In this document: piece by piece, positions 105 to 61,260 of the stretch
How the letters are laid out: each line of letters opens with the position of its first letter
Numbering within the stretch: position 1 is the stretch's first letter
Assembly (NCBI RefSeq): GCF_028368995.1
Contig: NZ_JAQNDL010000004.1
Coordinates: 416,001 to 480,000 of the forward strand
Source: Nannocystis bainbridge
GTDB lineage: Bacteria; Myxococcota_A; Polyangia; Nannocystales; Nannocystaceae
Direction: 5' to 3'
Length of the DNA stretch: 64,000 nt
The notes under the pieces: model-generated
What the model was told of the DNA's origin: nothing
The model's input: only the letters and a program-made list of their open reading frames with translations
Database searches by the model: none
Position numbers and translations under genes: made by a program

Positions 105-184
105 GGACATGTCCGCGAGGGCATGTGCCTGCGGACATGTTTAATCAGACATGCCCGATCGGGCATGCCGGGAGGGACAGGTTC
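105..184. repeat. 14-bp-period GGRCATGYCC array (6 units)
   Basis: Cores CATG at 108,122,136,150,164 and CAGG at 178; convergent junction abutting the hemH stop. Confidence 0.9.
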
Positions 185-1280
185 AGGCCGAGAGGGTCGC
201 CGGGGGCCGGTCGGTGAGGATCGGCAGGGCGCGCGGGTGGGGGGCGGCCTCGCGGATGAGGGTGGCGAGCGCGTTGACCCATACCGGGTGGTCGTTGAGG
301 CAGGGGACGAGGCGCAGGTCCTCGCCGCCGGCGGCCTTGAACGACTCGGCGGCGCGGATCCCGATCTCCTCGAGCGTCTCCAGGCAGTCGGCGACAAAGG
401 CGGGGCAGAACACGGCCAGGCGGCGGACGCCGCGGCGAGCCAGCTCGACCAGCGCGACGTCGGTGAACGGCTGGATCCACGGGGTGCGGCCGAGGCGGGA
501 CTGGAAGGCGATGCTGGTCGCTTCGCGGGCGAGGCCTAGGCGGTCGCGCAGGGCGCGGGCGGTGGCGACGCAGTGGGCGCGGTAGCAGTTGCGGTTGTTG
601 AGACCGATGGTGTCGCAGCAGTCGGGGCGGGCCAGGCAGTGGGCGCCGCTGGGGTCGCTCTTCTTGACCTGGCGCTCGGGCAGGCCGTGGAAGCTGAACA
701 TGACGTGGTCGGGGCGGAAGTCCTCGAGCACAGGCGCGCCGACGCGGGCGAGCGCGTCGATGAAGGCCGGGTGGTCGTAGAACGGCGGGACGATGGTGAG
801 GAACGGGGTGTTCCACGGCTCGCCGGCGGCGCGGTAGAGGGCCTCGACGGTCGATCCGGTCGAGCTCGAGGCGTATTGCGGGTAGAGCGGGACGGCGACG
901 ATCCGGTCGCAGCCGCGCGCCTTCAGGGCGTCGAGGCCGCGCTGCAGCGAGGGCTCGCCGTAGCGCATGGCGAGCTCGATCTCGAGGTCGGGCATGGCGA
1001 CGCGCAGGGCCTCGGTGAGCTGGCGCGAGTGGTGCAGCAGGGGCGAGCCGTCGGGGCCCCAGACGGTGCGGTAAGCGGCTGCGGAGCGCGCCGGACGGAA
1101 GGGGAGGATGACGAGGTTGAGCAGCAGCCAGCGGCCGACGGCGCCGATGTCGAGGACGCGCGGGTCGGACAGAAACTCGCGCAGGTAGCGGCGGACCTCG
1201 GGGGCGCGCGGGGCGGCGGGCGTGCCGAGGTTGATGAGGAGGACGCCGAGCTTCGGTTCGGGGCGCATGCGCGGGCGCAT
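183..1280 (-). CDS. hemH: ferrochelatase
   Basis: GVLLINLGTP, YLREFLSDPRV, PLYPQYASSSTGS, FSFHGLP, FQSRLG, FVADCLETLEEI motifs; start trimmed to ATG 1280 (or 1268). Confidence 0.95.
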   Translation of the reverse strand: MRPRMRPEPKLGVLLINLGTPAAPRAPEVRRYLREFLSDPRVLDIGAVGRWLLLNLVILPFRPARSAAAYRTVWGPDGSPLLHHSRQLTEALRVAMPDLEIELAMRYGEPSLQRGLDALKARGCDRIVAVPLYPQYASSSTGSTVEALYRAAGEPWNTPFLTIVPPFYDHPAFIDALARVGAPVLEDFRPDHVMFSFHGLPERQVKKSDPSGAHCLARPDCCDTIGLNNRNCYRAHCVATARALRDRLGLAREATSIAFQSRLGRTPWIQPFTDVALVELARRGVRRLAVFCPAFVADCLETLEEIGIRAAESFKAAGGEDLRLVPCLNDHPVWVNALATLIREAAPHPRALPILTDRPPATLSA

Positions 1281-1335
1281 CGTGGCGCGGTTCGCCAGGC
1301 GCCGCAACTGCGCGGCGGCTTGACGCGGGCCAGGG

Positions 1336-2121
1336 GTGCGCGCGACGTTTGCAGCGGTGACGGAGCGGCAGAGCCTGGCGCCAGGTGAGGTCCACGTGTG
1401 GCTGTGCGCGGCCGAGACGCAGGTCGACGCCGACTGGTTGGCGGCGGCGCGCGGGCTGCTGAACCCGGAGGAGCAGGCCCGCCAGGATCGCTTCGTGTTC
1501 GAGCGCAACCGCCGGCAGTTCGCGGTCGCGCGGGTGCTGGTGCGCCAGATCCTCGCCGGCTACACGGGGATCGCGGCAGCCGAGCTGCGCTTCGTCGCCA
1601 ACGAGTACGGCAGGCCGGCGCTGGCCCTGGCCGGCGCGCTCGAGTTCAACCTGTCGCACACCGACGGGCTGGCGGCGCTGGCGGTGACCCGCGTCGGCGA
1701 GATCGGGGTCGACGTCGAGGACGCCGAGCGACGCGCGCGGCCGGAGGAGGTGGCCGACCACTTCTTCGCGCCGAGCGAGGTGGCGGGGCTGATGGCGCTG
1801 GAGACCGAGCAGCGGCGGGCCCGGTTCTTCGACCTGTGGACGCTGAAGGAGGCGTACATCAAGGCGCGCGGGATGGGCCTGGCGATCCCGCTGGACGCGT
1901 TCGCGTACGACCTGTCGCGCGGGCGCGCGGCGATCGATCTGGCGATCGACGCGTCGCTCGGCGATCCGCGCGCGGGCTGGGAGTTCTTCCTGGAGGACCC
2001 GACGCCGCGCCACCGCCTGGCGCTGGCGGCCCGCTTGCCCGCGAGGGAACCCGCGCGGATAACGTATCGGTGGGTCGGTCCGGCCGGGCACGGGCGGCTC
2101 GGCCTGCGAGATGGTCCTTGA
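1336..2121 (+). CDS. 4'-phosphopantetheinyl transferase (Sfp type)
   Basis: YGRP, FNLSHT, IGVDVE, WTLKEAYIKARG motifs. Confidence 0.92.
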   Translation: MRATFAAVTERQSLAPGEVHVWLCAAETQVDADWLAAARGLLNPEEQARQDRFVFERNRRQFAVARVLVRQILAGYTGIAAAELRFVANEYGRPALALAGALEFNLSHTDGLAALAVTRVGEIGVDVEDAERRARPEEVADHFFAPSEVAGLMALETEQRRARFFDLWTLKEAYIKARGMGLAIPLDAFAYDLSRGRAAIDLAIDASLGDPRAGWEFFLEDPTPRHRLALAARLPAREPARITYRWVGPAGHGRLGLRDGP

Positions 2122-2172
2122 GACATGTTTTTATGGACATGTCCGAACGGACCTGTTCTTCACGACCTGTGA
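2107..2172. repeat. 14-bp-period GGRCATGYCC array (5 units)
   Basis: Cores GATG 2110, CATG 2124, CATG 2138, CCTG 2152, CCTG 2166; convergent junction. Confidence 0.85.
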
Positions 2173-2211
2173 TGCCGCGGCGCGACGGGATTCACTCGAA
2201 CGTGCGCGGCC

Positions 2212-2252: not shown

Positions 2253-2272
2253 GGGCGGCCTGGCGGCGGGGC

Positions 2273-10151: not shown

Positions 10152-11870
10152 TCACCGCCGCTTTGCCGCGCGTAGGCGCGCGAAGTACTCGCGGTAGGCC
10201 CGCATCGTCACGCCGGCGAACAGCAGCGTGATCGGGATGTTGACCCACAGCATCACGCCAGTGCCGACCGAGGTGATGTTGTCGAGTTCAGCCTCGGTGC
10301 TGATCCAGCCTGCGCAGGCGAGCAGGATGCTCAGGCAGTAGACGATCTTGTACGGGACGACTGACCGCCGTCCCGCCATGTAGACCATGCCCTGCTCGCC
10401 GTAATAGGCGTACGAGATCATGGTCGACACCGCGAACAGCCACGAGGCCACGGCCACGAGCCACTTCCCGAGCCCCGGGGCCACGCGATCGAAGGCGTGG
10501 CTGGTCAGCGCGGCGCCGACGTAGTCCTTGTAGACGTCGAGGCCTGCGAGCGCAGGCGCGCTGGCGAGCGGCGCCGCCGGGGAGCCCACCGGAGACCAGT
10601 CGACATAGAGGCGATCTCCCGCCCCGACAGCGACGACGCCGCTGACTCGCTGCAGGTCGCCGCCGGTGGCCGGATCGATCGGGCCGTAGCGCGCGAGCAT
10701 GAACACCCCGTCGCCGGGCCGCCAGCCGGTGCCGGTGATCGCCAGCGCCTGCGCATGTTTCTCGGGCAATGGCGTATCGGACAGGTCCCAACAGCCAGGT
10801 TCGATCTGGACCGCGGCCGGCGGGGCGGACAGCGAGGCCTCGCCGTCGCGACACCAGGCGCCGCTGGCCAGCACGACCAGCGAGGTGAGGGTGCAGACGA
10901 CGAGGGTGTCGATGAAGGGCTCGAGGCCGGCGACCACGCCCTCGCGCACGGGCTCGTCGGTCCGCGCGGCGCAGTGGGCGATCGGCGAGGTGCCCTGGCC
11001 GGCCTCGCTCGAGAACAGGGCCCGCTTCATGCCCCACACGAAGGCGGCGCCCGAGGTGCCGCCGACGAACGCGCCGGCGGCGTCGGCTGGGGAGAAGGCG
11101 GAGGCGACGATGAGGCGCAGCATCGCCGGGATGTCGGCGACGTGGACCGCGAGCACGTAGAGGGCGGCGGCGAGGTAGAGGAAGCACATCGCCGGGACCA
11201 GGGCGCCCGCGACGGCGCCGATCCGCTTGATGCCGCCGAGGATGACGGCGCCGACCAACAGCGCGAGCACGACGCCGACGGCCTGCTGCGGCACGCCGAA
11301 GCTCTCCTCGGTGACGATGCCGACGTTCCACGCCTGGAACATGTTGCCGCCGGTGAGCGTGCTGATGAGGAGGGTGATGCAGAACAGGACGCCGAGGACG
11401 CGGCCGACGGGCCGCAGCTTCTCGCTGCGCTGGGCGAGGCCGTCGTCGGCGACCCACATCGGCCCGCCGCTCGGCTCGTCCGGGTTGTCGGTGCGCCGGT
11501 ACAGCATCGACAGCGTGACCTCGGTGGTCTTGAGCGCCATGCCGGCGATGCCGACCATCCACATCCAGAACACCGCGCCCGGGCCCCCGAGCGCGATGGC
11601 GACGGCGACCCCGCCGATGTTGCCGAGGCCCACGGTGGCCGACAGCGCGGCGGAGAGGGCCTGGAAGTGGCTGATGGCCCCGGGCGCGTCGGGCTTGTCG
11701 TAGTCGCCGCGGATGATGGCGACGCCGTGGGTGAGCGCGTGGTACTGGCAGAAGCCGCTCCACACGGTGAACAAGAGGCCGGTGGCCATCACGGCGTAGA
11801 GCACGCTGTCGTGCCACAAGACCGCGTTGATGGCCGTCAGCCAGTCGTTGATGGCGATCCAGATCTCCAC
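10152..11870 (-). CDS. alanine/glycine:cation symporter (AGCS family)
   Basis: ATVGLGNIGGVA, GGPGAVFWMW, GGIKRIG, KRALFSSEAGQG, FIDTLVVCT, YYGE motifs. Confidence 0.92.
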   Translation of the reverse strand: MEIWIAINDWLTAINAVLWHDSVLYAVMATGLLFTVWSGFCQYHALTHGVAIIRGDYDKPDAPGAISHFQALSAALSATVGLGNIGGVAVAIALGGPGAVFWMWMVGIAGMALKTTEVTLSMLYRRTDNPDEPSGGPMWVADDGLAQRSEKLRPVGRVLGVLFCITLLISTLTGGNMFQAWNVGIVTEESFGVPQQAVGVVLALLVGAVILGGIKRIGAVAGALVPAMCFLYLAAALYVLAVHVADIPAMLRLIVASAFSPADAAGAFVGGTSGAAFVWGMKRALFSSEAGQGTSPIAHCAARTDEPVREGVVAGLEPFIDTLVVCTLTSLVVLASGAWCRDGEASLSAPPAAVQIEPGCWDLSDTPLPEKHAQALAITGTGWRPGDGVFMLARYGPIDPATGGDLQRVSGVVAVGAGDRLYVDWSPVGSPAAPLASAPALAGLDVYKDYVGAALTSHAFDRVAPGLGKWLVAVASWLFAVSTMISYAYYGEQGMVYMAGRRSVVPYKIVYCLSILLACAGWISTEAELDNITSVGTGVMLWVNIPITLLFAGVTMRAYREYFARLRAAKRR

Positions 11871-13003: not shown

Positions 13004-13297
13004 GAACTTCGGGACAGGTCGATGAGGATCGAGATGAACTTCGGGACAGGCGCGGGTGCGGTGGCTCGGAGGGGGAAGTGTCGCGCGACGCTTCGGAGGC
13101 GGAGGTTCGAGGTGAACTTCGGGACAGGTCGCGCGGGAGGCCGGATGAACTTCGGGACAGGTCGCGCGGGAGGCCGGATGAACTTCGGGGCAGGTCGCGC
13201 GGGGCTTGGGGCGGGCCGGAGATCGGGGGAACTTTGGGACAGGTCGCGCGGGGACGCGGGGCCGGGGGCGGGTGTACTTCGGGACAGGTCGCGCGGG
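13004..13297. repeat. 7 dispersed copies of GAACTTCGGGACAGGTC(GCGCGGG)
   Basis: Copies start at 13004,13036,13114,13147,13180,13229,13274. Confidence 0.9.
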
Positions 13298-13314
13298 TGG
13301 CTGCGGAGCGGTGG

Positions 13315-14220: not shown

Positions 14221-14266
14221 GGGGCGGCTGCGCGGCGAACGGGCGTGCCCGAATCGTCCGCGTAGC

Positions 14267-14360
14267 GGACATGCTCGAAGGGGCATGGCCGAACGAGCAT
14301 GCGCGAAGGGACATGCTCGAAGGGTCATGGCCGAACGAGCATGCTCGAAGGGACATGCTC
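14267..14360. repeat. 14-bp-period GGRCATGYCC array (7 units)
   Basis: CATG at 14270,14284,14298,14312,14326,14340,14354; convergent junction. Confidence 0.92.
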
Positions 14361-14430
14361 CGACAGCGAGGGGCCGGCCGCCCGGGGAGGCGGCCGGGTG
14401 TCCCGAGGGACAGGCGCGGGCTCGTGTCGC

Positions 14431-15307: not shown

Positions 15308-15359
15308 GAACATGTCGGATGAGACAGGGTGGAAGGGACAGGGTGAAACGGGCATGTCC
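15308..15359. repeat. 14-bp-period array (4 units)
   Basis: CATG 15311, CAGG 15325, CAGG 15339, CATG 15353; abuts the stop at 15361. Confidence 0.8.
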
Positions 15360-15360
15360 T

Positions 15361-16095
15361 TCAGGACCGGCGGAGACGGAGGCGGAGGCACAGGCCGACG
15401 GCCTCGAGGGCGATCGCGGGCGTCATCTTCGACGCGCCGCGCTCGCGGTCGGGGAACACGATCGGCAGCTCGCGCGCGCGCCTGCCGGCGCGCACGAGGC
15501 GGTACTTCATCTCGATCTGGAAGCCGTAGCCGCTGGCGGCCACGGCGCTGCGATCGAGGGCGGCGAGAGCGGCGCGGCCGTAGCAGACGAACCCGGCGGT
15601 CGGGTCGCGCAGGCCGAGGCCGAGCAGGGTGCGGGCGTAGAGGCCGCCGCCGCGCGACAGCAGGCGGCGCCCGAGGCTCCATCCGCGGGTGCCGCCGCCG
15701 GGCACGTAGCGCGAGCCGATCGCAAAGTCGGCGCCGGTCTCGCCGACCGCGGCGACCAGGCCCGGCAGGTAGGCGGGGTCGTGCGAGAAGTCGGCATCCA
15801 TGGTGATGATGTGGGTGAAGCTGTCCTCGTGCCGCAGGGCCCAGTCGATGCCGGCGAGGTAGGCGCGGCCGAGGCCCTGCTTGGCGGCGCGGTGGAGGAC
15901 GTGGACGCGGGCGTCGGCGGCGGCGAGGCCGTCGGCGAGGGCGCCGGTGCCGTCGGGGCTGGCGTCGTCGATGATGAGCACGCGCGCGTCGGGCAGCGCG
16001 GTGAGGATCGCCGCGGTGATCGGCTCGACGTTGTCGCGCTCGTTGTAGGTCGGCACGAGCACGAGCGGGCGTGGGCGATTGGCGGCGGCGCTCAT
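15361..16095 (-). CDS. polyprenol monophosphomannose synthase (GT2)
   Basis: PTYNERDN, DDASPDGT, GLGRAY, MDADFSHDP, GSRYVPGG, GYGFQIEM, GASKM. Confidence 0.92.
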   Translation of the reverse strand: MSAAANRPRPLVLVPTYNERDNVEPITAAILTALPDARVLIIDDASPDGTGALADGLAAADARVHVLHRAAKQGLGRAYLAGIDWALRHEDSFTHIITMDADFSHDPAYLPGLVAAVGETGADFAIGSRYVPGGGTRGWSLGRRLLSRGGGLYARTLLGLGLRDPTAGFVCYGRAALAALDRSAVAASGYGFQIEMKYRLVRAGRRARELPIVFPDRERGASKMTPAIALEAVGLCLRLRLRRS

Positions 16096-16816: not shown

Positions 16817-16882
16817 CGACAGGTACGAAGAGACATGTCCGTGGGGACAGGGCGTTCGGGGCAGGTGCGAAGGGGCATGTCC
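16817..16882. repeat. 14-bp-period array (5 units)
   Basis: CAGG 16820, CATG 16834, CAGG 16848, CAGG 16862, CATG 16876. Confidence 0.85.
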
Positions 16883-18310
16883 TTCGGGGCAGCGGCGCTG
16901 GCGCTGGCGCTCGGCTGCGGGCCGCCGGCGGTCGAGGTGCTGCCGGGGGTCAAGGCCGACCTCGGGTCGGGCGCGCCGAGCCCGGTCGGCGAGCCGACGC
17001 CGGCGCGGTCCGAGGGCGACTGCGCCGGGCTGGCGGCGGGCGCGGCCGCGGGCTCCGGCGAGGACGCGGTGCTGCTCGTTTGGACATGTCCGGAAGTTCA
17101 GGCGAGTCCGGCGGCGCTGCGGGCCGCGCTGCTGCAGGCGGGCAGCCCGGCGGAGGCGGCCGCGCTGGCGCCGAAGCTGGCGGCGGCGCCCGATCTGGCG
17201 GGGCTGGCCCGGCTGGCGGCGATCGATCGCCCGGCCGCGGGCTCGCTCAACCCGGCGGAGGCGCCCGACCCGGTCACGGCGATCGTGAGCCCGATCGACG
17301 AGGCGGTGCTCGGCGGGGTGCTGCGAGCGATCGGGGCCCAGACAGCGAGCGGGCTGACGCACGAACAGCGGACGCGGTCGGCGGCGCTGCTGGCCCGGGT
17401 CCACCGCGAGGCGCTGGCGCAGCTGGGGCTGCCGCCGGACCAGCCGCTGCCGCCGTTCGGGCGCCTGCTGGCCGGGCGGTTCCTCCACTTCGGTCGCGGG
17501 TTCTGTCAGACGTACTGGCAGCGGCGCGTGGCCGGGCTCGAGCCGCTGTTCGCGGCGACCGAGGACGAGCTGATGCGGGTGATGCTGGCGGTGGAGCGCA
17601 CGGCCCACGCGGGTGACGACGCGCTGCTGGCGGTCGAGCGCCAGCGGGCCCGCCGTTACTTGCAGGGCAGCGGGGTGGCGGAGCGGCTCAAGTCGCGCGG
17701 GGTGACGCAGACGCCCGAGGCCCTGCTGCCGCTGCCGAACGAGCTCGATCGCCTGGCCGACCACGGCTTCGTCGAGCTGGCGCTGCAGCGGGCGCTGTTC
17801 CTCGCGGGCGAGCAGCCGGCGCCGTTCGGGCTCGTGCCGGTGATCGAGTCGCTGCAGGCGATCCTGAGCCAGCGCGATCTGGGCGAGTTCCAGGCGCTGC
17901 TGACCCGCAGGATCGGCGAGTCGCGCAAGCTGGTGCCGGCGCCGCCGGAGCAGGGGACGCGCGAGTGGCCGGTGCGCGTGCCGTGGAGCTGGTCCGACGC
18001 GAGCTCGGTGGCGACCGCGGCCGAGACGCTGTGCGAGGAGGCCGACGCGGCCCAGGGGACGTCGCGCCAGCGCGGGCTGTGGCGGGCGGTGCTGGCGCTG
18101 CGCGACCGGCCCGACGCGTGCCGCGAGCTGCTGCGCCGGGCGCAAGCCGGCGGGCTGGCGGCCCGGCTGGCGCGGGCGGTGCTCGACCGCCTCGACGACG
18201 ACAGCCTGGCCGGGCTGCGCACGCGCACGGCGGCGCGCGAGGCCGGCGAGGCGCAGGTGCGGCGGGCGTTCGCGCTGGCGAGCCGCGACGCCGGGCTGTT
18301 GCCGCGCTGA
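16877..18310 (+). CDS. hypothetical lipoprotein, helical
   Basis: MSFGAAALALALGC lipobox; ATG supplied by the last array unit; alternative GTG at 16805. Confidence 0.7.
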   Translation: MSFGAAALALALGCGPPAVEVLPGVKADLGSGAPSPVGEPTPARSEGDCAGLAAGAAAGSGEDAVLLVWTCPEVQASPAALRAALLQAGSPAEAAALAPKLAAAPDLAGLARLAAIDRPAAGSLNPAEAPDPVTAIVSPIDEAVLGGVLRAIGAQTASGLTHEQRTRSAALLARVHREALAQLGLPPDQPLPPFGRLLAGRFLHFGRGFCQTYWQRRVAGLEPLFAATEDELMRVMLAVERTAHAGDDALLAVERQRARRYLQGSGVAERLKSRGVTQTPEALLPLPNELDRLADHGFVELALQRALFLAGEQPAPFGLVPVIESLQAILSQRDLGEFQALLTRRIGESRKLVPAPPEQGTREWPVRVPWSWSDASSVATAAETLCEEADAAQGTSRQRGLWRAVLALRDRPDACRELLRRAQAGGLAARLARAVLDRLDDDSLAGLRTRTAAREAGEAQVRRAFALASRDAGLLPR

Positions 18311-18600: not shown

Positions 18601-18619
18601 GACGCGCTTGCGCGCGCGT

Positions 18620-18769
18620 GAGCATGTTCTTTCGGACATGTGGAATCCGAGCGGGCGCACACGGCATGTTCGAGAGAACATGTAGTTCCAGACATGTCTC
18701 TATGGACATGTCCTCGAAGGCATGACCTATCGGGCATGACCTATCGGGCATGACCGATCGGGCATGTCA
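18620..18769. repeat. 14-bp-period GGRCATGYCC array (11 positions)
   Basis: CATG at 18623,18637,18665,18679,18693,18707,18721,18735,18749,18763; 18651 is degenerate but phase is kept. Confidence 0.93.
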
Positions 18770-21226
18770 TACGGCAGGGGCGTGTGCTGTCAGCCAGGCG
18801 GCGATCTCGCGCTGGCGGCGAGGGTTGCGGATGGCGTGGGCGTCGCGCTCGGCCTGGCGGGCGAGGGCCAGGGCGCGGTCGCGCTGGCTCGGTTCGTGGT
18901 CCCACAGGGCGCGGGCGAGGGCGAAGTGGGCGATGGTGCGGATCAGCGGCTGCTGCGAGCGCTCGGCCAGCGAGTGGGCGCGCTCGAGGTCGTCGAGGGC
19001 GCGGGCGATGGCGCCGCGGCCGAGCTGCAGCATGCCGGTGGCGGCGAAGTACTCGGCGTAGTCGAGGCGGTCGTTGCCGAAGGTGGCGATGATCTGCGGC
19101 AGGGCCGGCTCGAGCAGCCGTGCGGCCTCGTCGAAGTGGCCGAGCTCGAAGTGGGCGAGGCCGAGGTTGGCGTGGGCCATGCACGCGAACGGGTGGCGCT
19201 CGCCGAGCAGGCTGTCGAGCCCGGCGCTGGCCTCGTGGAGGACGGCAGCGGCCTCCTCGACCCGGCCGATCGAGCGCAAGGCCTCGCCGAGGCCGATCTG
19301 GGTGATCCGGATCGGCAGCGGCTCGTCGGGCGCGGTGCGCTGGCGCAGGGCGATGCCGCGGCGGTACAGGTCCTCGGCCTCGGCCAGGCGGCCCTGGGCG
19401 GCGCGCGAGTTGGCCAGATTGTTGAGGAGCTCGGCCTCGATGCCGATCTCGGGCGGGCGCCGGGCGATCAGGGCCCCGGCGATCGCTGCGGCGCGCTCGG
19501 CGGCACCGAAGTCCTGGAGGCCGTAGCCCTGGACGTGGACGTCGGTGACGAGGGCGCGAAGCTCGATGGCGTCGTGGCCGGCGCGGATGCTGGTGAGATA
19601 GGCGGCCCACAGCGAGCTGGCGGACTGCTGGGGCTCGCCGGTGTCGCTGAAGATCCGCCCGCGCCAGAACAGGGCCTCGGCGAGCAGCGGCGGGTAGTCG
19701 GTGGCCTCGGCGGCGTGGATGGTGCGCTCGACGAGGGCGACGGCGCGGTCGATCTGACCGGCGAGGAACAGCGCCTCGACCTGGGCCAGGTCGCGCTGCA
19801 GCAGCTGGACGCGGGCGGCGACGGCGGGGTCGCTCGGGAGGCCGAGGCGGCGCTGTTCGTCCATCAACGCCGTCGGGTCGCCGCACGAGGCGACCGAGCG
19901 CAGCCCGGCGACCGCCTGGGCGGCGTTCATCACGGTGTTGCGATCGCCCTCGGCGAGCACGTCGACGAGCGCGTCGAGCTCGGCCCGGCGGCGCTGCAGG
20001 CAGTGCATCTGCAGGTCGAGCGCGGCGCTCGAGCGCTCGCCGGCGCGGTGGGCCTCGCAGGTGCGCACGTGCAGCTCGGTCCACTCGGCGGCGTGGGCGT
20101 CGAGGTCCTGTCGCGTGCGCGCGACGGTGTCCGCGGCGAACACCAGGCCGGTCGCCAGCATGGCGCGCTCGACCGCGGCGCTGCGGCTGTCGTCCCACAC
20201 GCCGACGAGGTGCTCGGCGGCGTCACGGCAGCTGCCGGCGGCGCCGGCCTGGACGAACGCGATCGCGGCGGTGCCGAGGCCGGCCACGGCGAGGGCCCAG
20301 CGCATGCGTCGGCGGCCGCGATCGGGCGCGGGCGCCAGCTCGGCCAGCAGGTCGTGCATGGTCGGGAAGCGCTGGTTGGGATCGCTGTCGAGGCCGCGCA
20401 GCACGGCCCGCTGGACCTTGGGCGGCACCGGGGTGCGCGCGGGGATCGGGACGCGCTCGCCGAGCAGGACGCTGCGGCTGACCTCCTCGATGGTGCTGCC
20501 GGGGAACGGGCGGTAGCCGAACATCGCCTCGAACAGGGCCACGCAGAAGCCGAACTGATCGGTGCGCGCGTCGGTCGGCTCGCGCAGGAACTGCTCGGGC
20601 GCCATGTAGGCGGGGGTGCCGATCAACGAGCCGGCGGCGGTCATGCGCAGGATCGATTTGCCCGACTCCGAGATCGTGGCGCTGAGCTCGTCGCCGCCGA
20701 GGCCGACCGGCAGGGCCAGGCCGAAGTCCATGACGCGGACGCGGCCGTCGCCGCCGATCATGAAGTTGTCGGGCTTGACGTCGCGGTGGACGATGCCGGC
20801 GCCGTGAGCCGCGGCCAGGCCGCGACCGGCCTCCACGAACACCGCGAGGATGTCGGACCACGAGCGCGTCTGCTCTTCGAGCCAGGTGGTGAGGGTGCGG
20901 CCGTGGACGAACTCGAGGGCGATGAAGATCTGGCTGTTCCACTCGCCGACGTCGTAGATCTGGATGACGTTGGGGTGCGACAGCTGGGCCAGCGCCTGGG
21001 CCTCGCGCAGCAGGCGGGCGCGGCCGGGGAGGTCGCCGCTGAGCTGGCGACGGACCAGCTTGACGGCGACGCGACGGTCGAGCAGCTCGTCGTAGGCGCT
21101 GTAGACGACGCCCATGGCGCCCTCGCCGAGGCGGCTGAGGACGACGTAGCGGCCGAACCGCAGCGCGTTGGCGTCAGGCTCGCTCGAGCCCGCTCCGCCG
21201 CCGGTCGCCGTGGTCTCGTCGGCCAT
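18767..21226 (-). CDS. serine/threonine protein kinase with TM segment and TPR repeats
   Basis: LGEGAMGVVY, VAVKL, HRDVKPDN, DFGLA, GTPAYMAPE; C-terminal TPR-like LNNLA/HANLG repeats. Confidence 0.95.
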   Translation of the reverse strand: MADETTATGGGAGSSEPDANALRFGRYVVLSRLGEGAMGVVYSAYDELLDRRVAVKLVRRQLSGDLPGRARLLREAQALAQLSHPNVIQIYDVGEWNSQIFIALEFVHGRTLTTWLEEQTRSWSDILAVFVEAGRGLAAAHGAGIVHRDVKPDNFMIGGDGRVRVMDFGLALPVGLGGDELSATISESGKSILRMTAAGSLIGTPAYMAPEQFLREPTDARTDQFGFCVALFEAMFGYRPFPGSTIEEVSRSVLLGERVPIPARTPVPPKVQRAVLRGLDSDPNQRFPTMHDLLAELAPAPDRGRRRMRWALAVAGLGTAAIAFVQAGAAGSCRDAAEHLVGVWDDSRSAAVERAMLATGLVFAADTVARTRQDLDAHAAEWTELHVRTCEAHRAGERSSAALDLQMHCLQRRRAELDALVDVLAEGDRNTVMNAAQAVAGLRSVASCGDPTALMDEQRRLGLPSDPAVAARVQLLQRDLAQVEALFLAGQIDRAVALVERTIHAAEATDYPPLLAEALFWRGRIFSDTGEPQQSASSLWAAYLTSIRAGHDAIELRALVTDVHVQGYGLQDFGAAERAAAIAGALIARRPPEIGIEAELLNNLANSRAAQGRLAEAEDLYRRGIALRQRTAPDEPLPIRITQIGLGEALRSIGRVEEAAAVLHEASAGLDSLLGERHPFACMAHANLGLAHFELGHFDEAARLLEPALPQIIATFGNDRLDYAEYFAATGMLQLGRGAIARALDDLERAHSLAERSQQPLIRTIAHFALARALWDHEPSQRDRALALARQAERDAHAIRNPRRQREIAAWLTAHAPAV

Positions 21227-21370: not shown

Positions 21371-21436
21371 CTGCCTGTGCCGGAGGACATGTCCTCGGGG
21401 GCATGTCCGAATCGACATGGCTATTTGAGCATGTCC
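21371..21436. repeat. 14-bp-period array (5 units)
   Basis: CCTG 21374, CATG 21388, 21402, 21416, 21430; overlaps the rhomboid stop. Confidence 0.88.
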
Positions 21437-23025
21437 GCAAAGGCACGCGAGTGCCGCGGCAGGAACAGGGCCCCGAGGACCACGCCGGCGGCGATGCCGG
21501 CGGCGTGGGCGGTGCCGCTGACCTCGGGGGTGAAGCTGTCGAACACGACCTGGAGTCCGAACAGGATGGCGAGCGCGACCAGCTCGGTGCGGCCGATCGG
21601 GGTCGACCGGAGGTCGCGCCGCAGCAGCAGGGCGGCGATCACGGCGCCGCCGAGCGCCATGATCGCCCCGGAGGCGCCGATCAGCAGCAACGGGCTGGCC
21701 GGGTCGCGCAGGAGCGCCACGGCGAGGCCGCTGAGGGCGGCGCTCAGCACGTAGATGGCGGCGAGGCGAGCCCGGCCGAACAGCACCTCGACGAAGGTGC
21801 CGAAGCGCCACAGCATCAGGACGTTGAGGGCGAGGTGGAGGACGCCGACGTGCAGCAGCGTCAGGGTGCCGAGCCGCCAGACCTCGGACGGGCCGAAATC
21901 GCCGGTGTACAGGGCACCCCAGGCGTAGGCGTGCTCCGTGTCGTAGGGATCGCCGACGCTGGCGTAGATGGCGTAGAAGCCGACGAGCACGGCCATCCAC
22001 GCCCAGGTGAGGCGCGGGCGGATGGCGTGGCGGCCGAGGAAGGTCGAGACGGCGCGCAGGGTCGGAGCGCCGCGGCGCAGGGCGGCGAGGCGGTGGTCGA
22101 GCGCGGGGCTAGGGGTGGTGGCCGGCCGCGGCGGGCGGCGCACGATCATGGCGTCGAGCGAGGCGAGGGTGGAGCGGGCGATCCGGTGCTCGCCGTGCTG
22201 CTCGAGCGCGCGCGCGAGGGTGCGACGGGCGGCGTCGGGGCGGCCGGCGCACCACTCGGCGAGGGCGACGCACAGCTCGCGATCGCCGCGCGCGAGGTAC
22301 ATGCCGAGGCCGTCGGCGAGGGCGCAGGTGCGGGCGACGTCGCCGGCGAGGGCGTGGGCCTGGATGACGAGGCGAGCGAGGCGCTCGAGCTGCTGGAAGG
22401 TGGGGTCGCCGGCGAGCGCCCGCGCGAGCGCCTCGGCGAGGGCGTCGCCGCTGGGGTCGGTGCAGGCGACGCTCTGGACGTAGATGGCGCCGAGGCCCTG
22501 GGCGAACAGGCCGGCGCGCTCCTCGGGATCGGCGAAGGCGGCCTTGACGGCGTCGACGTCGCGGCGGTTGTGCAGGAGGACGATGTCGAAGGCGCGCCGC
22601 ACCTGCGGCAGGCCGTGCGAGACGCGATCGAGCTCGGCGGGCGGGACATCGTCGCCGGCGCGCAGGGCGAGGATGGTCGGCAGCGCGGCCAGCTCCTCGC
22701 GCACGACCCGGGTCGGGTGGATCCGCGCGAGCACCCAGGCGAGCCGCCGCGCCCGCACCTCGTCGCCGGCGCCGATGGCCCGGTGCAGCCGCGTCTGCAG
22801 CGAGACGGGGGCGATGATGAAGAGGAGGTAGAGGCCGAAGGCGACGAAGCCGGCGCTGACGGGCTCGATCCACCACGCGAGCGCGGCGGCGAGGACGATA
22901 AAGGCGACGAGCAGCCAGCCGGTGCGCGCGTGCGGCAGGCCGACCCGGCGCAGGTAGAGGGCGTAGCCGAATAGCCCGATCGCGGTGACGATCAGCAGCG
23001 GGAGGGCGAGGGCGTCGATCGGCAC
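21421..23025 (-). CDS. rhomboid-family intramembrane serine protease with N-terminal extension
   Basis: WRL, HLALN, IGASGAI (Ser), AHAAG (His) in the C-terminal part. Confidence 0.88.
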   Translation of the reverse strand: MPIDALALPLLIVTAIGLFGYALYLRRVGLPHARTGWLLVAFIVLAAALAWWIEPVSAGFVAFGLYLLFIIAPVSLQTRLHRAIGAGDEVRARRLAWVLARIHPTRVVREELAALPTILALRAGDDVPPAELDRVSHGLPQVRRAFDIVLLHNRRDVDAVKAAFADPEERAGLFAQGLGAIYVQSVACTDPSGDALAEALARALAGDPTFQQLERLARLVIQAHALAGDVARTCALADGLGMYLARGDRELCVALAEWCAGRPDAARRTLARALEQHGEHRIARSTLASLDAMIVRRPPRPATTPSPALDHRLAALRRGAPTLRAVSTFLGRHAIRPRLTWAWMAVLVGFYAIYASVGDPYDTEHAYAWGALYTGDFGPSEVWRLGTLTLLHVGVLHLALNVLMLWRFGTFVEVLFGRARLAAIYVLSAALSGLAVALLRDPASPLLLIGASGAIMALGGAVIAALLLRRDLRSTPIGRTELVALAILFGLQVVFDSFTPEVSGTAHAAGIAAGVVLGALFLPRHSRAFADMLK

Positions 23026-23969: not shown

Positions 23970-24050
23970 CAGGGTGTCCTTAAGGACAGGTTGATTCTCA
24001 GGAGGATGTCCCACGGGACAGGTCGGTTGCCTGTCCCGAAGGACATCCGG
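23970..24050. repeat. three pairs of 14-bp-spaced TGTCC-N4-GGACA units
   Basis: Core pairs 23973/23987, 24005/24019, 24030/24044; convergent junction. Confidence 0.8.
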
Positions 24051-28224: not shown

Positions 28225-28407
28225 GGAGTCGGGTCGGTCGCGGCGCGGGCGACGGTGAGGCGCGACGAGCGAGTCTCGCGCCCGGCACGCGGGACCCGGG
28301 GCGCGACGAGCGAGTCGTTCGCGCCCGGCTCGGGGGACTCGAGGCGCGGCGAAGTGCGAGTCACTCGTCGGTGTGACGAAGCAGTGACGCGCGGACAGTC
28401 GGCCGGA

Positions 28408-31819: not shown

Positions 31820-31821
<2 letters not shown>

Positions 31822-31885
31822 GCAGGGCCTTTCAGACAGGTCGTGAAGGACAGGTCGTCGAGGACATGGCCGACTGGGCATGTCC
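31820..31885. repeat. 14-bp-period array (5 units)
   Basis: CAGG 31823, 31837, 31851; CATG 31865, 31879; convergent junction. Confidence 0.88.
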
Positions 31886-31900
31886 TTTGCGACTCACGGG

Positions 31901-37252: not shown

Positions 37253-37884
37253 CAGTGGCCCTTCCAGGTCCGGCGCTTGCCGGTGTCGAGGTGGACGAAC
37301 TGGCTGACGGGGTAGTAGCCGACGCCGCCTTTCCACCGCTTGAGCGCGTACTTGTAGAGCTTGTCGGCCTTGACGCCGCGCAGCGAGAAGTCGATCGCCT
37401 GGCTGCGCGCGTGCTGGCTGTCGCGCGCGACCTCGTGGCCCTTCTTGGTGAGCATGAGGTTGAACTTGGGGTGGCGGAAGCCGCTGATGACGCGGACCTC
37501 GCCGGCGCCGAAGTGGTCGGCCGCGGCGACGACCCCGGCGATCAGCTCGGCGGGGTGGCCGGCCGGCTCGTCGGTGAAGCGGCAGCGAAAGAAGCTCGCC
37601 AGCGCGCCGGGAGGGTGGGGGCCGCGCAGCGGCATGACCTCGAGCGTGTGAAGGTGACGGGCGAACAGCACCGGGTCGGCCTGGTCGCCGGCGCGTGGGG
37701 AGTCGCGGCAGACCGGGTCGATGAGACATGTTCCATCGGACATGTCCTTGGGGCAACATGCGCGCCGGGCCGGCGGCGGGGCCCGCTTGGCGGCGAGGTA
37801 GGCGGCCTTCTTGTCGTCCTCGTGCTCGCCGGTCGGACCGACGGCGGGGCCGAGCAGCGCGGCGACGAGGAGGACGACCTGCAC
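37252..37884 (-). CDS. YcbK/DUF882 family (peptidase M15-like) protein
   Basis: VISGFR, SQH..SQAID, GGVGYYP, FVHLDTG. Confidence 0.85.
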   Translation of the reverse strand: MQVVLLVAALLGPAVGPTGEHEDDKKAAYLAAKRAPPPARRACCPKDMSDGTCLIDPVCRDSPRAGDQADPVLFARHLHTLEVMPLRGPHPPGALASFFRCRFTDEPAGHPAELIAGVVAAADHFGAGEVRVISGFRHPKFNLMLTKKGHEVARDSQHARSQAIDFSLRGVKADKLYKYALKRWKGGVGYYPVSQFVHLDTGKRRTWKGH

Positions 37885-42808: not shown

Positions 42809-43810
42809 ATGGCGGCCGAGCTCGGCGGGCTCGCGTGGCCCGCCCGCGTACAGATCTGGGACGCCGCGTTGGCCGCCGTGCGCGGCTATTTTCGCGAGGC
42901 GGGCCTGCGCGAGGTCAGCACGCCGGTGCGCGTGCCCGCGGTCGCGGTCGAGCCGTTCATCGAGCCGATCGCCGCGCCGCCGGGCCTGCTGGCGACCAGC
43001 CCCGAGCTGGCGATGAAGCGGCTGCTGGTGCGCGGCAGCGGGCCGATCTTTCAGATCGCCCACGTGTTCCGTCGCGCCGAGGTCGGCGATCGTCACAGCG
43101 AAGAGTTCCACCTCGTCGAGTGGTACCGCCTCGGCGCCGATCTCGATCCGCTGCTCGCCGACGTCGAGGCGCTCGTAGCCCGGGTGTTCGCTGCGACAGG
43201 TACGAACGGACATGTCCCGAAGACCTGGCAGCGCGCGCGCTTCGGCGACGTGGTGACCGCGACCTGCGGCGCGCGCCTGCGCGGCGACGAGGGGCCCGAC
43301 GCCTTGGTGGCCGCGCTGCCGCCGGCGCTGGCCGCCGAGGTGGTCGCGGCGCTGGTGCCGGCCGCGGGCGCGGACCCGGCGGCGCGGACCCTGATGGCGT
43401 GGACGGCTTTCTTTACTGCCTGGTCGGACATGTTCTTCGAGACATGGCTGAAAGGACATGAAGGTACGCACCTGGTCGACTTCCCGGCGCCGCTCGCGGC
43501 GCTGGCGGTGACCGACCCGGAGCGGCCGTGGCTGGCGCGGCGGGCCGAGTGCCACGTCGGCGGGCTGGAGATCGCCAACGGCTACGTCGAGCTGCGCGAC
43601 GCCGACGAGCAGCGGCGTCGGTTCGCGGCGGTCAACGAGCTGCGGCGGGCCCACGGCTCGGCGGCGCTGCCGATCGACGACGAATTCCTGACCGAGCTGC
43701 CCGGGCTGCCGCCGTGCGCCGGGATCGCTCTCGGCCTCGACCGCCTGATCACCCTCGCAGCCTGCCGCACGCGCCTCGCCGACGTCTCGCTCGCCCTCGC
43801 TGGCGGGTGA
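42809..43810 (+). CDS. epmA: EF-P lysine aminoacylase (EpmA/GenX)
   Basis: TSPELAMKRLL, FR..E.GDRHSEEF..EWY, EIANGYVEL, GLPPCAGIALGLDRL; follows efp. Confidence 0.9.
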   Translation: MAAELGGLAWPARVQIWDAALAAVRGYFREAGLREVSTPVRVPAVAVEPFIEPIAAPPGLLATSPELAMKRLLVRGSGPIFQIAHVFRRAEVGDRHSEEFHLVEWYRLGADLDPLLADVEALVARVFAATGTNGHVPKTWQRARFGDVVTATCGARLRGDEGPDALVAALPPALAAEVVAALVPAAGADPAARTLMAWTAFFTAWSDMFFETWLKGHEGTHLVDFPAPLAALAVTDPERPWLARRAECHVGGLEIANGYVELRDADEQRRRFAAVNELRRAHGSAALPIDDEFLTELPGLPPCAGIALGLDRLITLAACRTRLADVSLALAGG

Positions 43811-46227: not shown

Positions 46228-46396
46228 GGCCCTTCGGGCCTGATCCACTGCACGGCCCTCCGGGCCTGATCCACTGCACGGCCCTCCGGGCCTGATCCAC
46301 TGCACGGCCCTCCGGGCCTGATCCACTGCACGGCCCTCCGGGCCTGATCCACTGCACGGCCCTCCGGGCCTGATCCACCGCACGGCCTTCAGGCCC
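46228..46396. repeat. 26-bp tandem repeat GGCCCTCCGGGCCTGATCCACTGCAC (6 full units plus a partial)
   Basis: Units at 46228,46254,46280,46306,46332,46358,46384; each has a GGCCC-N3-GGGCC hairpin. Confidence 0.95.
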
Positions 46397-52555: not shown

Positions 52556-52579
52556 GTCGTCTCCGCGACGCGCTCGACG

Positions 52580-52614
52580 AAGAAGGGGCCGCCCTGCGCG
52601 GCCCCTTCTTTTTT
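52580..52614 (+). terminator. intrinsic terminator
   Basis: AAGAAGGGGCCGC-CCTGC-GCGGCCCCTTCTT then TTTT. Confidence 0.88.
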
Positions 52615-52693
52615 GCGCGTGCAACGTCCGACGCGCTGCCCGAGCGAAGCGCCGGTTACGGCGCTTCGCTTCACGGCGGTCGCGTCTCGCGGT

Positions 52694-54612: not shown

Positions 54613-54692
54613 TTGGATGTCTCGAAGGACATGCCCATGTCGACATGTCTTCGTGGACATGCCACGAAGGACATGTTCTCACAGACAGGCTC
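54613..54692. repeat. 14-bp-period array (6 units)
   Basis: GATG 54616, CATG 54630, 54644, 54658, 54672, CAGG 54686; convergent junction. Confidence 0.9.
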
Positions 54693-56010
54693 AATCTCGC
54701 CGCGGCTCGGCGGTCGGCTCGCCGCGCGGCAGCAGCAGGGTGAAGCTGGACCCGCGGCCGCTCTCGCTGTCGACGACGATGTCGCCGCCGAGCAGGCGGG
54801 CGAAGCGGCGGCTGATGGCGAGGCCGAGGCCGGTGCCGCCGAAGCCGTGGCGGGCGTCGTGGACCTGCGAGAAGTCGCGGAACAGCAGCGAAAGCTTGTC
54901 GGCGTCGATGCCGATGCCGGTGTCGGCGACGCAGAAGGCGATGAACTCGCGGTCGCCCTCGCGGGCCGCTCGCACCGCCAGCTCGACCTCGCCGCGCGCG
55001 GTGAACTTGACCGCATTGCTCAGCAAGTTGAGCAAGATCTGGCGCAGCTTGGTGGCGTCGGTCGTGATGTCCCCGAGGCCAGGTTCGAGCACCATCCGCC
55101 AGCGCAGCGGCTTGCCGCGCAGCTGCGGGCGCACGGCCGCCTCCATCTCCTCGGCCAGCGGCGCGACCGCGACCGACTCGCGCCGCAGCTGCGGGACGCC
55201 GGCCTCGAGGCGCGCGAGGTCGAGGATGTCCTCGATGACGGCGACGAGGTGGCGGCCGGAGCGGTCGACGGTCTGGATGTCGGGCAGGAGCTGGCCGAGG
55301 CCGGCGGCGGTGGCCTCCTCGCGCAGCATCTCGGCGCAGCCGAGGATCGCGTTGAGCGGCGTGCGCAGCTCGTGGCCCATGTTGGCGAGGAAGAGGTCCT
55401 TGGCGCGCGCCGCGGTGACGGCCTCGGCGCGGGCGCGGGCGAGGTCGTCCCGCTGCTCGGCGAGCTCGCGCTCGCGGCGATCGAGCTCGAGGCGGACGGC
55501 GGCCTGGCGCGCGAGGGCGAGGAGGTCGCGCCGCTGGTCCTCGTCGAAGCGGCGCGGGACGACATCGAGGATGCACAGGCCGGCGATCGCCCGGCCGGCC
55601 TCGCCGGGCAGCGACACGCCGACGAGGCTGCGCAGCCGCGGGCAGGCGGCCACCAGCGGATGCGCGGCGAACCGCGGGTCGGCGGCGAGATCTTCGATCT
55701 CGAGCGGCTCGTCGCGCGCGAGCACGGCGGTACAAAAGGACAGGTAGCGTGAGGCGTCGCCGTCGCCGAGGCCGAAGCTGCCCGCGAGCCACACGGCGTC
55801 CTCGTCGGCGAGGGCGAGCAGGACGATCGGCGCGGCCAGCAGCGTGGCGGCCAGACGCGTGAGATCGGCGAAGGCCTGCTCGCGGTCCGAGCCGACGGGC
55901 GCACGCTCCGGCGCGCCCGCACGCGGGACCTCGAGCTCGGACGACGCGACCAACTCCACGGACCTACGATACTCGCCGTCGCGAGCGCAGCAAGCCCTCT
56001 TCATCGCCAT
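54691..56010 (-). CDS. GAF-domain histidine kinase
   Basis: SFC..DPRF..GLCILD GAF; FLANMGHELRTPLN, NLLSNAVKFT, DTGIGI, GGTGLGL. Confidence 0.93.
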   Translation of the reverse strand: MAMKRACCARDGEYRRSVELVASSELEVPRAGAPERAPVGSDREQAFADLTRLAATLLAAPIVLLALADEDAVWLAGSFGLGDGDASRYLSFCTAVLARDEPLEIEDLAADPRFAAHPLVAACPRLRSLVGVSLPGEAGRAIAGLCILDVVPRRFDEDQRRDLLALARQAAVRLELDRRERELAEQRDDLARARAEAVTAARAKDLFLANMGHELRTPLNAILGCAEMLREEATAAGLGQLLPDIQTVDRSGRHLVAVIEDILDLARLEAGVPQLRRESVAVAPLAEEMEAAVRPQLRGKPLRWRMVLEPGLGDITTDATKLRQILLNLLSNAVKFTARGEVELAVRAAREGDREFIAFCVADTGIGIDADKLSLLFRDFSQVHDARHGFGGTGLGLAISRRFARLLGGDIVVDSESGRGSSFTLLLPRGEPTAEPRRD

Positions 56011-57878: not shown

Positions 57879-57958
57879 GGACATGTCCTCGGGGGCATGC
57901 CCGCAGGACCATGTTCGTTTAAGCATGTCCTCGGGGTCATGCCCCCGAGGACATGTCC
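57879..57958. repeat. 14-bp-period GGRCATGYCC array (6 units)
   Basis: CATG at 57882,57896,57910,57924,57938,57952; convergent junction. Confidence 0.92.
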
Positions 57959-57964
57959 GGGCCG

Positions 57965-59905: not shown

Positions 59906-60009
59906 GGAAATTCCTCCGGGCGATGTGGACCCGGGCCGGACCCGCGGAGTGTCGCGAGCGGACGGCTGGGCGGGTCGCTTCCGCGCAAGTATCCTCCCGG
60001 CACCCCGCC

Positions 60010-61101
60010 ATGCAAAGTCCCGTGTCCGAGCTCGCCCCGCGGCCTCAGGGTCCTGAACTCCTCGCCGATCTGACGACGCTCGTGCCCGATCCGAACCGGC
60101 TGTGCGTGGCCTATGCGAGCCTCATGCAGGTGCAGGAGGGCCGCACCCGCCAGGGTCGACCGTACTTCGATCTGGTGGTGAGCGACGCCGCGCGGACCAT
60201 CGCCGCCAAGGTCTGGGACGACGCGCCCGAGGCGATGGAGGCGGCGAGGGCGGCGCGACGCGGGCAGGCGGTCAAGCTGCTGTTCCGCGTCGAGCAGTAC
60301 CAGGGCGCGCTGCAGCTCAACGTCCGCAAGCTTCGCGGCGCGCTCGACGACGACGACGGCTACGCGCCGGCGCGGGTGTTCGGCGAGGGCTTCGAGCGGG
60401 TCGCGGGCAAGCTGTGCCGCACGCTGGTGTTCGACATCGAGACGGCGCCGGCGCACGACCCGGCGACGATGCCGGCCAGCGTGATCGAGGCGATCCAGCG
60501 CCACGCGACGCGCGAGGCGTGCGAGCCGGGGCTGGTGATGAGCCTGTCGCCGCTGTTCGGGCAGGTCGTGTCGCTGGCGTTCATGGACGGCGACGACCTC
60601 GACGGCGAGGTGTGGGCGCTCGGCGTGCCGCCCGGCGGCGATCCGCGGCGGGTGGTCGAGGCGGTGCCGCCGTGGCTGCAATTGGTCAGCGAGCGCGAGC
60701 TGCTGCAGGCGTTCTGGCTGCTGGCGGCCCAGGCCGAGGTGGTGGTCAGCTACAACGGGCGCAACTTCGACGTGCCGTTCCTGCTCGGGCGCAGCCTCGT
60801 GCACGAGGTGCCGGCGCGGGTCGATCTGCTCGGCAGCCCGTACGCGTTGCGGCCGCACCTCGACCTCTACCGCATGATCGCCACCGGCCGCTCGGTCGCC
60901 CCGGCCCCGCTCGACGCGGTCTGCTGGGCGCTCGGGGTCGACAGCCCGAAGGGCGGGATGAGCGGCGCCGACGTCGCCCCGGCCTACGCCCGCGGCGAGC
61001 TGGCGGCGATCTCCTCTTACAACCGCGGCGACGTGCGCGCGACCGCCAGCGTGTACCAGCGCGTGCGCGACACGGTGCTGCGGTTCCGCGAGGACTGGTG
61101 A
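60010..61101 (+). CDS. OB-fold plus DEDDy (PolB-exo-like) 3'-5' exonuclease
   Basis: GRPYFDLVVSD..AKVWD (YhaM-like OB fold); VFDIET, SYNGRNFDVPFL, YNRGDV (Exo I-III). Confidence 0.82.
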   Translation: MQSPVSELAPRPQGPELLADLTTLVPDPNRLCVAYASLMQVQEGRTRQGRPYFDLVVSDAARTIAAKVWDDAPEAMEAARAARRGQAVKLLFRVEQYQGALQLNVRKLRGALDDDDGYAPARVFGEGFERVAGKLCRTLVFDIETAPAHDPATMPASVIEAIQRHATREACEPGLVMSLSPLFGQVVSLAFMDGDDLDGEVWALGVPPGGDPRRVVEAVPPWLQLVSERELLQAFWLLAAQAEVVVSYNGRNFDVPFLLGRSLVHEVPARVDLLGSPYALRPHLDLYRMIATGRSVAPAPLDAVCWALGVDSPKGGMSGADVAPAYARGELAAISSYNRGDVRATASVYQRVRDTVLRFREDW

Positions 61102-61104
61102 GCC

Positions 61105-61260
61105 GGGGCTGTCCGAACGGGCATGCTCTGGAGAGCATGTCCTGAAGGGCATGTAGGATCGCGCGGCCGGATGGAGCCTGCGAACAGCGAAGGGGGACAT
61201 GCCGGTTCGGGCATGTCCCCTCGTGCATGTTCTGGAGAGCATGTCCTCGCGGACATGCCC
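61105..61260. repeat. two 14-bp-period arrays (4 and 5 units)
   Basis: Cores 61108,61122,61136,61150 and 61198,61212,61226,61240,61254; convergent junction. Confidence 0.9.

Follow-up and report, generated by a model that had tools for sequence, protein, structure and literature searches.

The 64-kb window of Nannocystis bainbridge DNA considered here (a chromosomal piece with 71% GC; 'window' denotes this whole stretch throughout) contains a family of short repeats dispersed over its length, at the ends of genes and, in a few cases, inside them. The repeated motif, read at the coordinates given below, is a palindromic decamer close to GGACATGTCC, which occurs in runs with four bases between consecutive copies; the 64 kb contain 16 such arrays, with 3–11 units each. 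The interpretation that is tentatively favoured is that the arrays are phased binding sites for a two-fold symmetric, sequence-specific DNA-binding protein at the ends of transcription units. Genes were mapped by frame analysis of GC content at third codon positions (GC3), together with Pfam domains in 55 window proteins. Among these is the tyrosyl-tRNA synthetase TyrRS, which is 92% identical to its counterpart in N. exedens and shares 88–91% identity with the enzymes of four further named Nannocystis.

An earlier note on this DNA had listed 12 loci. All of them carry the element, with two corrections: the copies at 23970 are off the 14-bp phase, and the locus at 61105 consists of two arrays, so that the 12 loci and three arrays inside genes together make up the 16. 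At the convergent junctions, six units at 105..188 accompany the stop codon of a plus-strand gene (93) and that of the minus-strand ferrochelatase gene (183); the fold z score, here and below computed against dinucleotide shuffles, is −3.6. Five units at 2107..2176, with the cores GATG, CATG, CATG, CCTG and CCTG, overlap the stop codon of a PPTase gene (2119–2121) that is convergent with the TrpRS gene; the unit overlapped by this TGA is AGACATGTTT (2119–2130). An array of 11 units at 18620..18773, including a fully degenerate one at 18648, abuts the stop codon of a Ser/Thr kinase gene (18767). The rest of that convergent junction is occupied by a separate 19-bp tandem repeat, GCGCAGAGGCGACGCAGCC (18372–18595; 11.8 copies, 89% matches). 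Three TGTCC-N4-GGACA dyads, 32 and 25 bp apart, fill a 94-bp convergent junction at 23970..24047, and five units (three CAGG and two CATG cores) fill one of 79 bp at 31820..31889. Six units at 54613..54696 abut the stop codon of a histidine kinase gene (54691), and another six, at 57879..57962, fill a 99-bp junction and fold with −66.7 kcal/mol (z = −8.6). This last array is, as a whole, a near-perfect 84-nt palindrome that includes the spacers (TCGG pairs with CCGA); at this junction in N. exedens, the array lacks this symmetry. Finally, four units at 61105..61160 begin 4 bp past the stop codon of an exonuclease-like gene, and five units at 61195..61264 lie 12 bp from the TyrRS stop codon, their phase being 6 bp off that of the former.

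The arrays at 14267, 15308, 16817 and 21371 lie, according to our gene map, at co-directional and not at convergent junctions. The first (14267..14364; −/−) has seven units with a 42-bp super-period, and a solitary TGTCC-N4-GGACA dyad lies nearby at 14399–14412. Four units with the cores CATG, CAGG, CAGG and CATG (15308..15363) fill a 60-bp junction; five units at 16817..16886 begin 9 bp past the stop codon of a PilZ gene (+/+); and five at 21371..21440 overlap that of a rhomboid gene (21421; −/−). Another co-directional junction contains repeats of 33–45 bp (13113–13306), each with an embedded CTTCGGGACAGGTCGCGCGGG, which looks like one decayed unit (CAGG variant, TTC-type spacer) within a longer repeat. 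A 26-bp tandem repeat, GGCCCTCCGGGCCTGATCCACTGCAC, lies between a TonB-like and an ExbB gene (46228–46387; 6.2 copies, 98% matches).

The three arrays inside genes had been missed in the earlier listing. They comprise four units at 33240..33295 in a GH18 lipoprotein gene on the minus strand (start 33349), just past the lipobox cysteine; three units at 37710..37751 in the N-terminal part of an M15 peptidase gene, also on the minus strand (start near 37884); and three units at 43426..43467 in an EpmA-like gene, where they encode SDMFFETWLKGHEGT. The same EpmA-like gene holds a degenerate array of three units with the cores CAGG, CATG and CCTG (43194..43235), and a sodium:alanine symporter gene contains a weak in-phase cluster (10695..10806); these two were likewise absent from the listing. 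Single perfect decamers with typical GAA/TTC-type flanks occur in genes at 17082, 38446 and 43208, two of them with decayed CAGG or CCTG neighbours in phase.

The 14-bp period is exact and the motif is strongly enriched. The tetranucleotide CATG occurs 281 times in the window, compared with about 168 expected from base composition, and 40 pairs of CATG lie 14 bp apart, with none at 13 bp and one at 15 bp. Further peaks at 28, 42, 56, 70 and 84 bp comprise 29, 24, 14, 8 and 7 pairs, respectively, while the remaining distances have 0–5; those at 14, 28 and 42 bp had been anticipated in the earlier note. The full decamer GGRCATGYCC is found 18 times (0.31 expected), and TGYCC-N4-GGRCA, which spans the spacer, 19 times (0.33 expected); none of 100 shuffles reached the observed count of either. 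Taken together, the 79 in-phase units have the consensus G G R C A T G Y C C, with frequencies at positions 4–7 of.95 for C,.90 for A,.85 for T and 1.00 for G. The cores are CATG in 59 units, CAGG in 10, CCTG in five, GATG in two and others in three; the single-step variants are A/T-to-G/C changes. The spacers are non-random as well: after collapsing the strands, the commonest among 76 are CTTC/GAAG (8), GAAC (6) and TGAA (5), followed by CGAA, GAAA and CCGA (4 each). In the array listing, their orientation follows no consistent pattern with respect to the direction of transcription. Altogether, the arrays comprise 1,106 bp, or 1.7% of the window, with a GC content of 58% as opposed to 71% for the genome. 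At six array loci, a period of 14 is also detected by Tandem Repeats Finder.

Searches for known relatives of the element were negative. Rfam gave no matches at the gathering score, including none to a CRISPR repeat; the longest array had no blastn match among 72,556 plasmids; and a protein search with the open-frame translation of an array, intended to detect spurious open reading frames elsewhere, returned no candidates. No conserved head or tail sequences and no target duplications border the arrays.

The placement of the arrays depends on the orientation of the flanking genes. Of the 10 convergent junctions, eight have an array; among junctions with a gap of at least 40 bp, the figures are 4 of 19 for co-directional and none of six for divergent ones, and divergent pairs of any gap give 0/9. 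The earlier counts of 9/11 for convergent and 0/10 for divergent junctions are close to these values, and the claimed bias towards gene 3' ends and absence from divergent junctions both hold (convergent versus divergent, p = 0.007; convergent versus co-directional, p = 0.0045). It is also correct that arrays abut stop codons: in 12 of 13 intergenic arrays the edge lies within 16 bp of one, and several arrays overlap it. In long gaps the array is situated at the stop-codon end, while short convergent gaps (79–99 bp) consist almost wholly of array.

The two array-less convergent junctions differ from each other. The one at 52580 (52570–52620) has a classical terminator, as had been stated, with a GC-rich stem of 11–14 bp (14 predicted pairs) followed by T6 (−36.1 kcal/mol, z = −5.3). 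The other contains a 43-bp repeat (28257–28352; 2.3 copies) and is not significantly structured (28250–28360; z = 0.38), so the suggestion that hairpins substitute for arrays at both junctions holds at 52580 only. Terminator scans, which covered positions 1–60000, flagged only 16849–16836, 18606–18623 and 23975–23988 within arrays and almost nothing just past gene ends outside them, a weak candidate at 11993–11976 being the exception; a simple scan missed the 52580 hairpin. With one classical terminator in the window and arrays at most convergent junctions, the arrays largely replace classical terminators here.

A second species was reached through a search of genome contigs with patterns taken from the TyrRS alignment. 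The patterns proved universal, and among the 80 loci kept, one belongs to a relative, namely a 21-kb locus (L001) of N. exedens DSM 71; the other 79 are unrelated (1.18 Mb) and serve as negative controls only. L001 has 11, 8 and 5 CATG pairs at 14, 28 and 42 bp, while the 79 controls altogether have 18 pairs at 14 bp. The element is present in this relative, with N. exedens arrays at exactly the three junctions common to L001 and the window. Over 9.3 kb the two sequences are 90.7% identical; identity is 87.7% at third codon positions, 86–96% in divergent intergenic regions and 69–76% in arrays, and one array failed to align at all. Unit by unit, spacer identity is random (15/68) and decamer identity is equal at any unit offset; orthology of individual units is therefore rejected. 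At one shared junction, the units are shifted by 7 nt between the species when counted from the flanking stop codon. In this pair of sequences, the arrays thus keep their positions, whereas their content is completely replaced. In N. exedens, the TGA stop codon of the histidine kinase gene forms positions 1–3 of the unit TGACATGTCC (L001 17814–17826), and the C-terminus of this kinase differs by about seven codons between the two species.

The arrays inside genes provide the most telling evidence. In an alignment with 14 relatives, the segment of the EpmA-like protein that comprises SDMFFETWLKGHEGT shows no change in length, which rules out an insertion as the origin of this array; the residues W, S, D, W and L within it are invariant across the family. 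The three CATG cores are generated by the residues M, T and H and by the rare codons ACA, AAA, GGA, CAT, GAA and GGT. M, T and H are found only in the closest aligned relatives (at least 78% identity), of which the named ones are Nannocystis. Codons ending in A or T account for 6/15 in this array versus 7.5% in the rest of the gene; the corresponding values are 4/15 versus 4.6% for the M15 peptidase, 8/19 versus 3.5% for GH18 and 7/38 versus 3.9% for the weak array in the symporter gene (p = 5e-4, 4e-3, 1e-7 and 6e-4 for the four in-gene arrays). Thus, point changes have introduced both motif and period into a conserved gene against its codon bias, and the arrays are a clear example of codon usage being overridden by a DNA motif. 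The evolution in place of this motif at this period points to a reader that recognises sequence as well as spacing. Point changes without insertion are not explained by an inserted mobile element, and a generic structure would not demand them.

Binding of a symmetric protein to phased sites is the explanation towards which these observations lean, if only tentatively. The data show the motif, its phase and placement, its persistence in a second species, tandem duplication and constraint at the nucleotide level inside genes; from these we infer a protein as the reader of the duplex, together with the consequences of its binding. Each GGRCATGYCC decamer would take one dimer, and neighbouring dimers would touch only at the 14-bp spacing, with a turn of 120° per unit, so that three units correspond to four helical turns. 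An array of 3–11 units might then be coated as a short nucleoprotein filament. Such a filament would most likely mark where transcription units end and seal them off, acting as an insulator, as a topological barrier or as a roadblock in both directions; the arrays are kept out of promoter regions.

Several properties are consistent with a protein reader. The boxes lie at a fixed centre-to-centre distance, as in a cooperative operator array. The bases at R3 and Y8 are not correlated with one another or with the neighbouring unit, which is a pattern of protein recognition and not of base pairing. The concentration of CATG pairs at 14 bp, with next to none at 13 or 15 bp and with mostly unrelated spacers, argues against a hairpin, since a loop would tolerate changes in length. 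Selection for stable stems would hardly favour the comparatively low GC content of the arrays, and the tests for hairpins described below were negative. The placement at gene ends also counts in favour of this explanation, as does the presence of arrays at 3/3 junctions shared with N. exedens in spite of random spacer identity. A cooperative DNA-binding protein had been the first of two models in the earlier note, and it fits the exact spacing, the specific core with its R/Y-degenerate flanks, and the in-gene arrays.

This picture is complicated by a number of points that weigh against it. No candidate for the cognate protein was found by Pfam among the 55 window proteins or by NCBIfam among 12 unknown proteins. 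Most of the folded arrays (13/18) are significantly more stable than shuffled sequences, and one is the near-perfect 84-nt palindrome described above. The off-phase, spacer-centred dyads at 23970 fit a hairpin, or a dimer on TGTCC-N4-GGACA, as well as they fit a reader of the decamer. The gradient from convergent through co-directional to divergent junctions is also expected from tolerance of insertions, as for repetitive extragenic palindromes (REPs). Rapid tandem duplication alone preserves phase, and the scarcity of insertions and deletions is therefore weaker evidence than it looks. A strong roadblock at the in-gene arrays of 3–4 units would block transcription of the very genes that contain them. 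Finally, all statistics derive from the 64 kb and the one orthologous locus of 21 kb.

A more ambitious version of the protein-binding explanation is distinctly improbable. It posits a dedicated protein that polymerises on arrays at stop codons, forming bidirectional roadblocks that would end transcription and insulate convergent genes, in other words a general protein-based terminator and insulator system; if it were true, the in-gene arrays would act as tunable brakes. A comparable system is that of the terminator-protein sites arrayed downstream of rRNA genes in eukaryotes. To our knowledge, no protein-based terminator or insulator has been described as a genome-wide system in bacteria.

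Among the alternatives, an RNA element similar to REPs and bacterial interspersed mosaic elements (BIMEs) is unlikely, though a serious contender. In the transcript, adjacent or mirrored decamers would pair into stems of 7–10 bp with four-base loops, and these would attenuate transcription in both directions and/or protect the upstream mRNA from 3' exonucleases; being palindromic, the unit would function whichever strand is transcribed, in keeping with convergent junctions. Such tetraloop hairpins had been the second model of the earlier note, and the arrays can indeed fold: 13 of 18 (12 of 16 in the window) have z ≤ −2.3, the best value being −8.6. The positions right past stop codons and at 8/10 convergent junctions are what this explanation expects, as are the classical terminator at one of the two array-less convergent junctions, the small number of terminator-like matches in 1–60000 (from a scanner that missed 52580), and the dyads at 23970, which retain only those halves that would pair. 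The REPs of E. coli are described as elements of 3' untranslated regions that terminate transcription and stabilise mRNA, mostly without a U-tract (bioRxiv 10.64898/2026.03.23.713779).

The specific predictions of base pairing fail, however. Watson–Crick pairs between positions 8–10 of a unit and positions 1–3 of the next number 23, 30 and 32 of 51, compared with 20.3, 28.8 and 31.7 expected for independent positions, and pairing within units is no more pronounced (21, 33 and 35 of 51 versus 20.4, 28.8 and 29.5). The third pair from the loop is therefore mismatched in about half of the adjacent pairs (23/51 Watson–Crick), and contingency tables for R3 and Y8 reveal no association with each other or with the neighbouring unit; there is no covariation of pairing partners. 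Nor is there any excess of folding energy over arrays rebuilt from random units in 60 permutations: the totals are −590.8 versus −586.9 ± 15.0 kcal/mol for one strand and −522.6 versus −513.9 ± 14.9 kcal/mol for the other. Spacers from the same array are no more mirror-complementary than spacers from different arrays (p = 0.78). Where an array is transcribed in a single direction, the sense strand folds more stably in just three of seven cases, and the presence of an array does not improve the per-base folding of an intergenic region. The second array-less convergent junction, with its z of 0.38, is not significantly structured. Above all, structure accounts neither for the invariant CATG, nor for the exact 14-bp period, nor for the appearance of both in the EpmA-like gene. 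In 14/18 arrays, and irrespective of how the flanking genes are oriented, plus-strand RNA folds more stably than minus-strand RNA, perhaps owing to a G+T skew of this replichore.

It is improbable that the arrays are a self-propagating satellite without host function, expanding and contracting by slippage or spread by a REP-type (RAYT-like) enzyme, and surviving only where it does least harm, namely past stop codons and in convergent gaps. Tandem growth is certainly part of their history. The 42-bp super-period at 14259–14360 has 93% matches and three almost identical 14-bp units at 18719–18766 have 97% (both from Tandem Repeats Finder). Direct similarity of spacers is also higher within arrays than between them (32/150 versus 284/2700; odds ratio 2.3, p = 1.6e-4), which indicates that tandem duplication feeds the arrays. 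The earlier argument against slippage, which relied on divergent units and on phase being held across a degenerate one, is to this extent wrong. The complete turnover between two species that are 90.7% identical, with the 7-nt phase shift relative to one stop codon, suits a satellite, as do a junction gradient that matches tolerance of insertions and the share of the window that the arrays occupy (1.7%). Against this, the EpmA array arose without insertion and in opposition to codon bias, arrays persist at 3/3 shared junctions despite the turnover, and in long gaps they are located at the stop-codon end and not at random. Conserved ends and target duplications are lacking, and no transposase or Y1 (RAYT) domain was detected among the 55 window proteins.

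Very improbable, lastly, is an iterated palindrome driven by methylation or repair (a CATG methyltransferase or a bias of mismatch repair), with arrays as a by-product of slippage, comparable to the highly iterated palindrome HIP1 of cyanobacteria: the over-representation of the decamer (18 versus 0.31), its single in-gene copies at 17082, 38446 and 43208 and the overriding of codon bias would agree with it, but it leaves the 14-bp phase, the adjacency to stop codons and the absence from divergent junctions unexplained, and the A/T-to-G/C core variants correspond to ordinary decay under GC pressure and not to motif-creating repair.

If the density in the window held genome-wide, the chromosome would contain very many arrays. 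With arrays at 8/10 convergent junctions and a single classical terminator in the window, the ending of transcription units and the insulation of convergent genes become directly testable in a high-GC bacterium. The arrays would matter for annotation, given that stop codons lie inside some units, for the assembly of Nannocystis genomes, and for expression engineering in these natural-product producers.

Among known systems, REP/BIME elements offer the closest comparison. They are defined by a conserved repeated motif, are exclusively extragenic and form clusters of 1–12 units. The units are imperfect palindromes of 30–50 bp that carry a conserved bulge and alternate in type (Y, Z1 and Z2); most are situated between convergent genes or in 3' untranslated regions, and their sequence is specific to the species (bioRxiv 10.64898/2026.03.23.713779). 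This source names termination, mRNA stabilisation and protein binding as proposed roles. Like REPs, the Nannocystis element is dispersed, clustered, palindromic and located at 3' ends. Unlike them, it has a single type of unit, a 10-bp perfect-type palindrome with a 4-bp spacer at an exact 14-bp period, and 3–5 of its arrays lie inside genes. REP/BIME elements are associated with a RAYT gene (a Y1 transposase) flanked by the repeats; none was found by Pfam among the 55 window proteins.

In its possible mode of action, the element resembles the tandem operator boxes of ribbon-helix-helix repressors, such as the met-boxes of MetJ, and plasmid centromere arrays; in both, short palindromic or repeated boxes follow one another head to tail every 7–20 bp or so, and dimers occupy them cooperatively. 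These operator boxes lie in promoters and plasmid centromere arrays at one plasmid locus, whereas the Nannocystis arrays are dispersed over many gene ends and avoid promoters. Read across the spacer, the motif C-ATGT-CC-N4-GG-ACAT-G yields ATGT-N8-ACAT, which resembles the canonical PadR operator; this is an inverted ATGT/ACAT with a spacer of 8–10 nt in the regulated promoter (PMC3506622). The resemblance extends over eight bases and is a lead only. In contrast to single promoter sites for PadR, the arrays are absent from divergent junctions (0/9), their terminal units are complete decamers and not half-dyads, and Pfam detected no PadR gene among the 55 window proteins. Intrinsic terminators share the location right past stop codons and the capacity for stems with four-base loops; unlike them, the arrays have no U-tract, and their stems contain AT pairs and are often mismatched. 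The genuine terminator at 52580 bears little likeness to an array.

CdbA, a nucleoid-associated protein of Myxococcus xanthus, has hundreds of dispersed sites that are over-represented in intergenic DNA, and its motif consists of GC-rich direct repeats with 4 bp between them (PMC7156744). It was considered as a reader and rejected, as the arrays have 58% GC and their units are inverted repeats centred on CATG. CRISPR arrays consist of repeats of about 24–40 bp that alternate with unique spacers about as long, and they come with a leader and cas genes. The Nannocystis arrays are of a different kind: their period is 14 bp and their spacers are 4 bp long, the 55 window proteins include no cas domains, and there is no Rfam CRISPR match.

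The literature searched, which included few subscription journals and no supplements, yielded no description of this element, in agreement with the earlier note, which did not recognise it from described repeat families; matches for GGACATGTCC itself were mainly work on p53, with no bacterial repeat paper among the matches listed. The arrays are a real, statistically strong and, as far as searched, undescribed Nannocystis repeat family, and look like a relative of the dispersed palindromic intergenic repeats of other bacteria. What sets them apart from these systems is the exact 14-bp phase, the CATG-centred decamer, the adjacency to stop codons, the in-gene copies that override codon bias, and the turnover of content at fixed positions.

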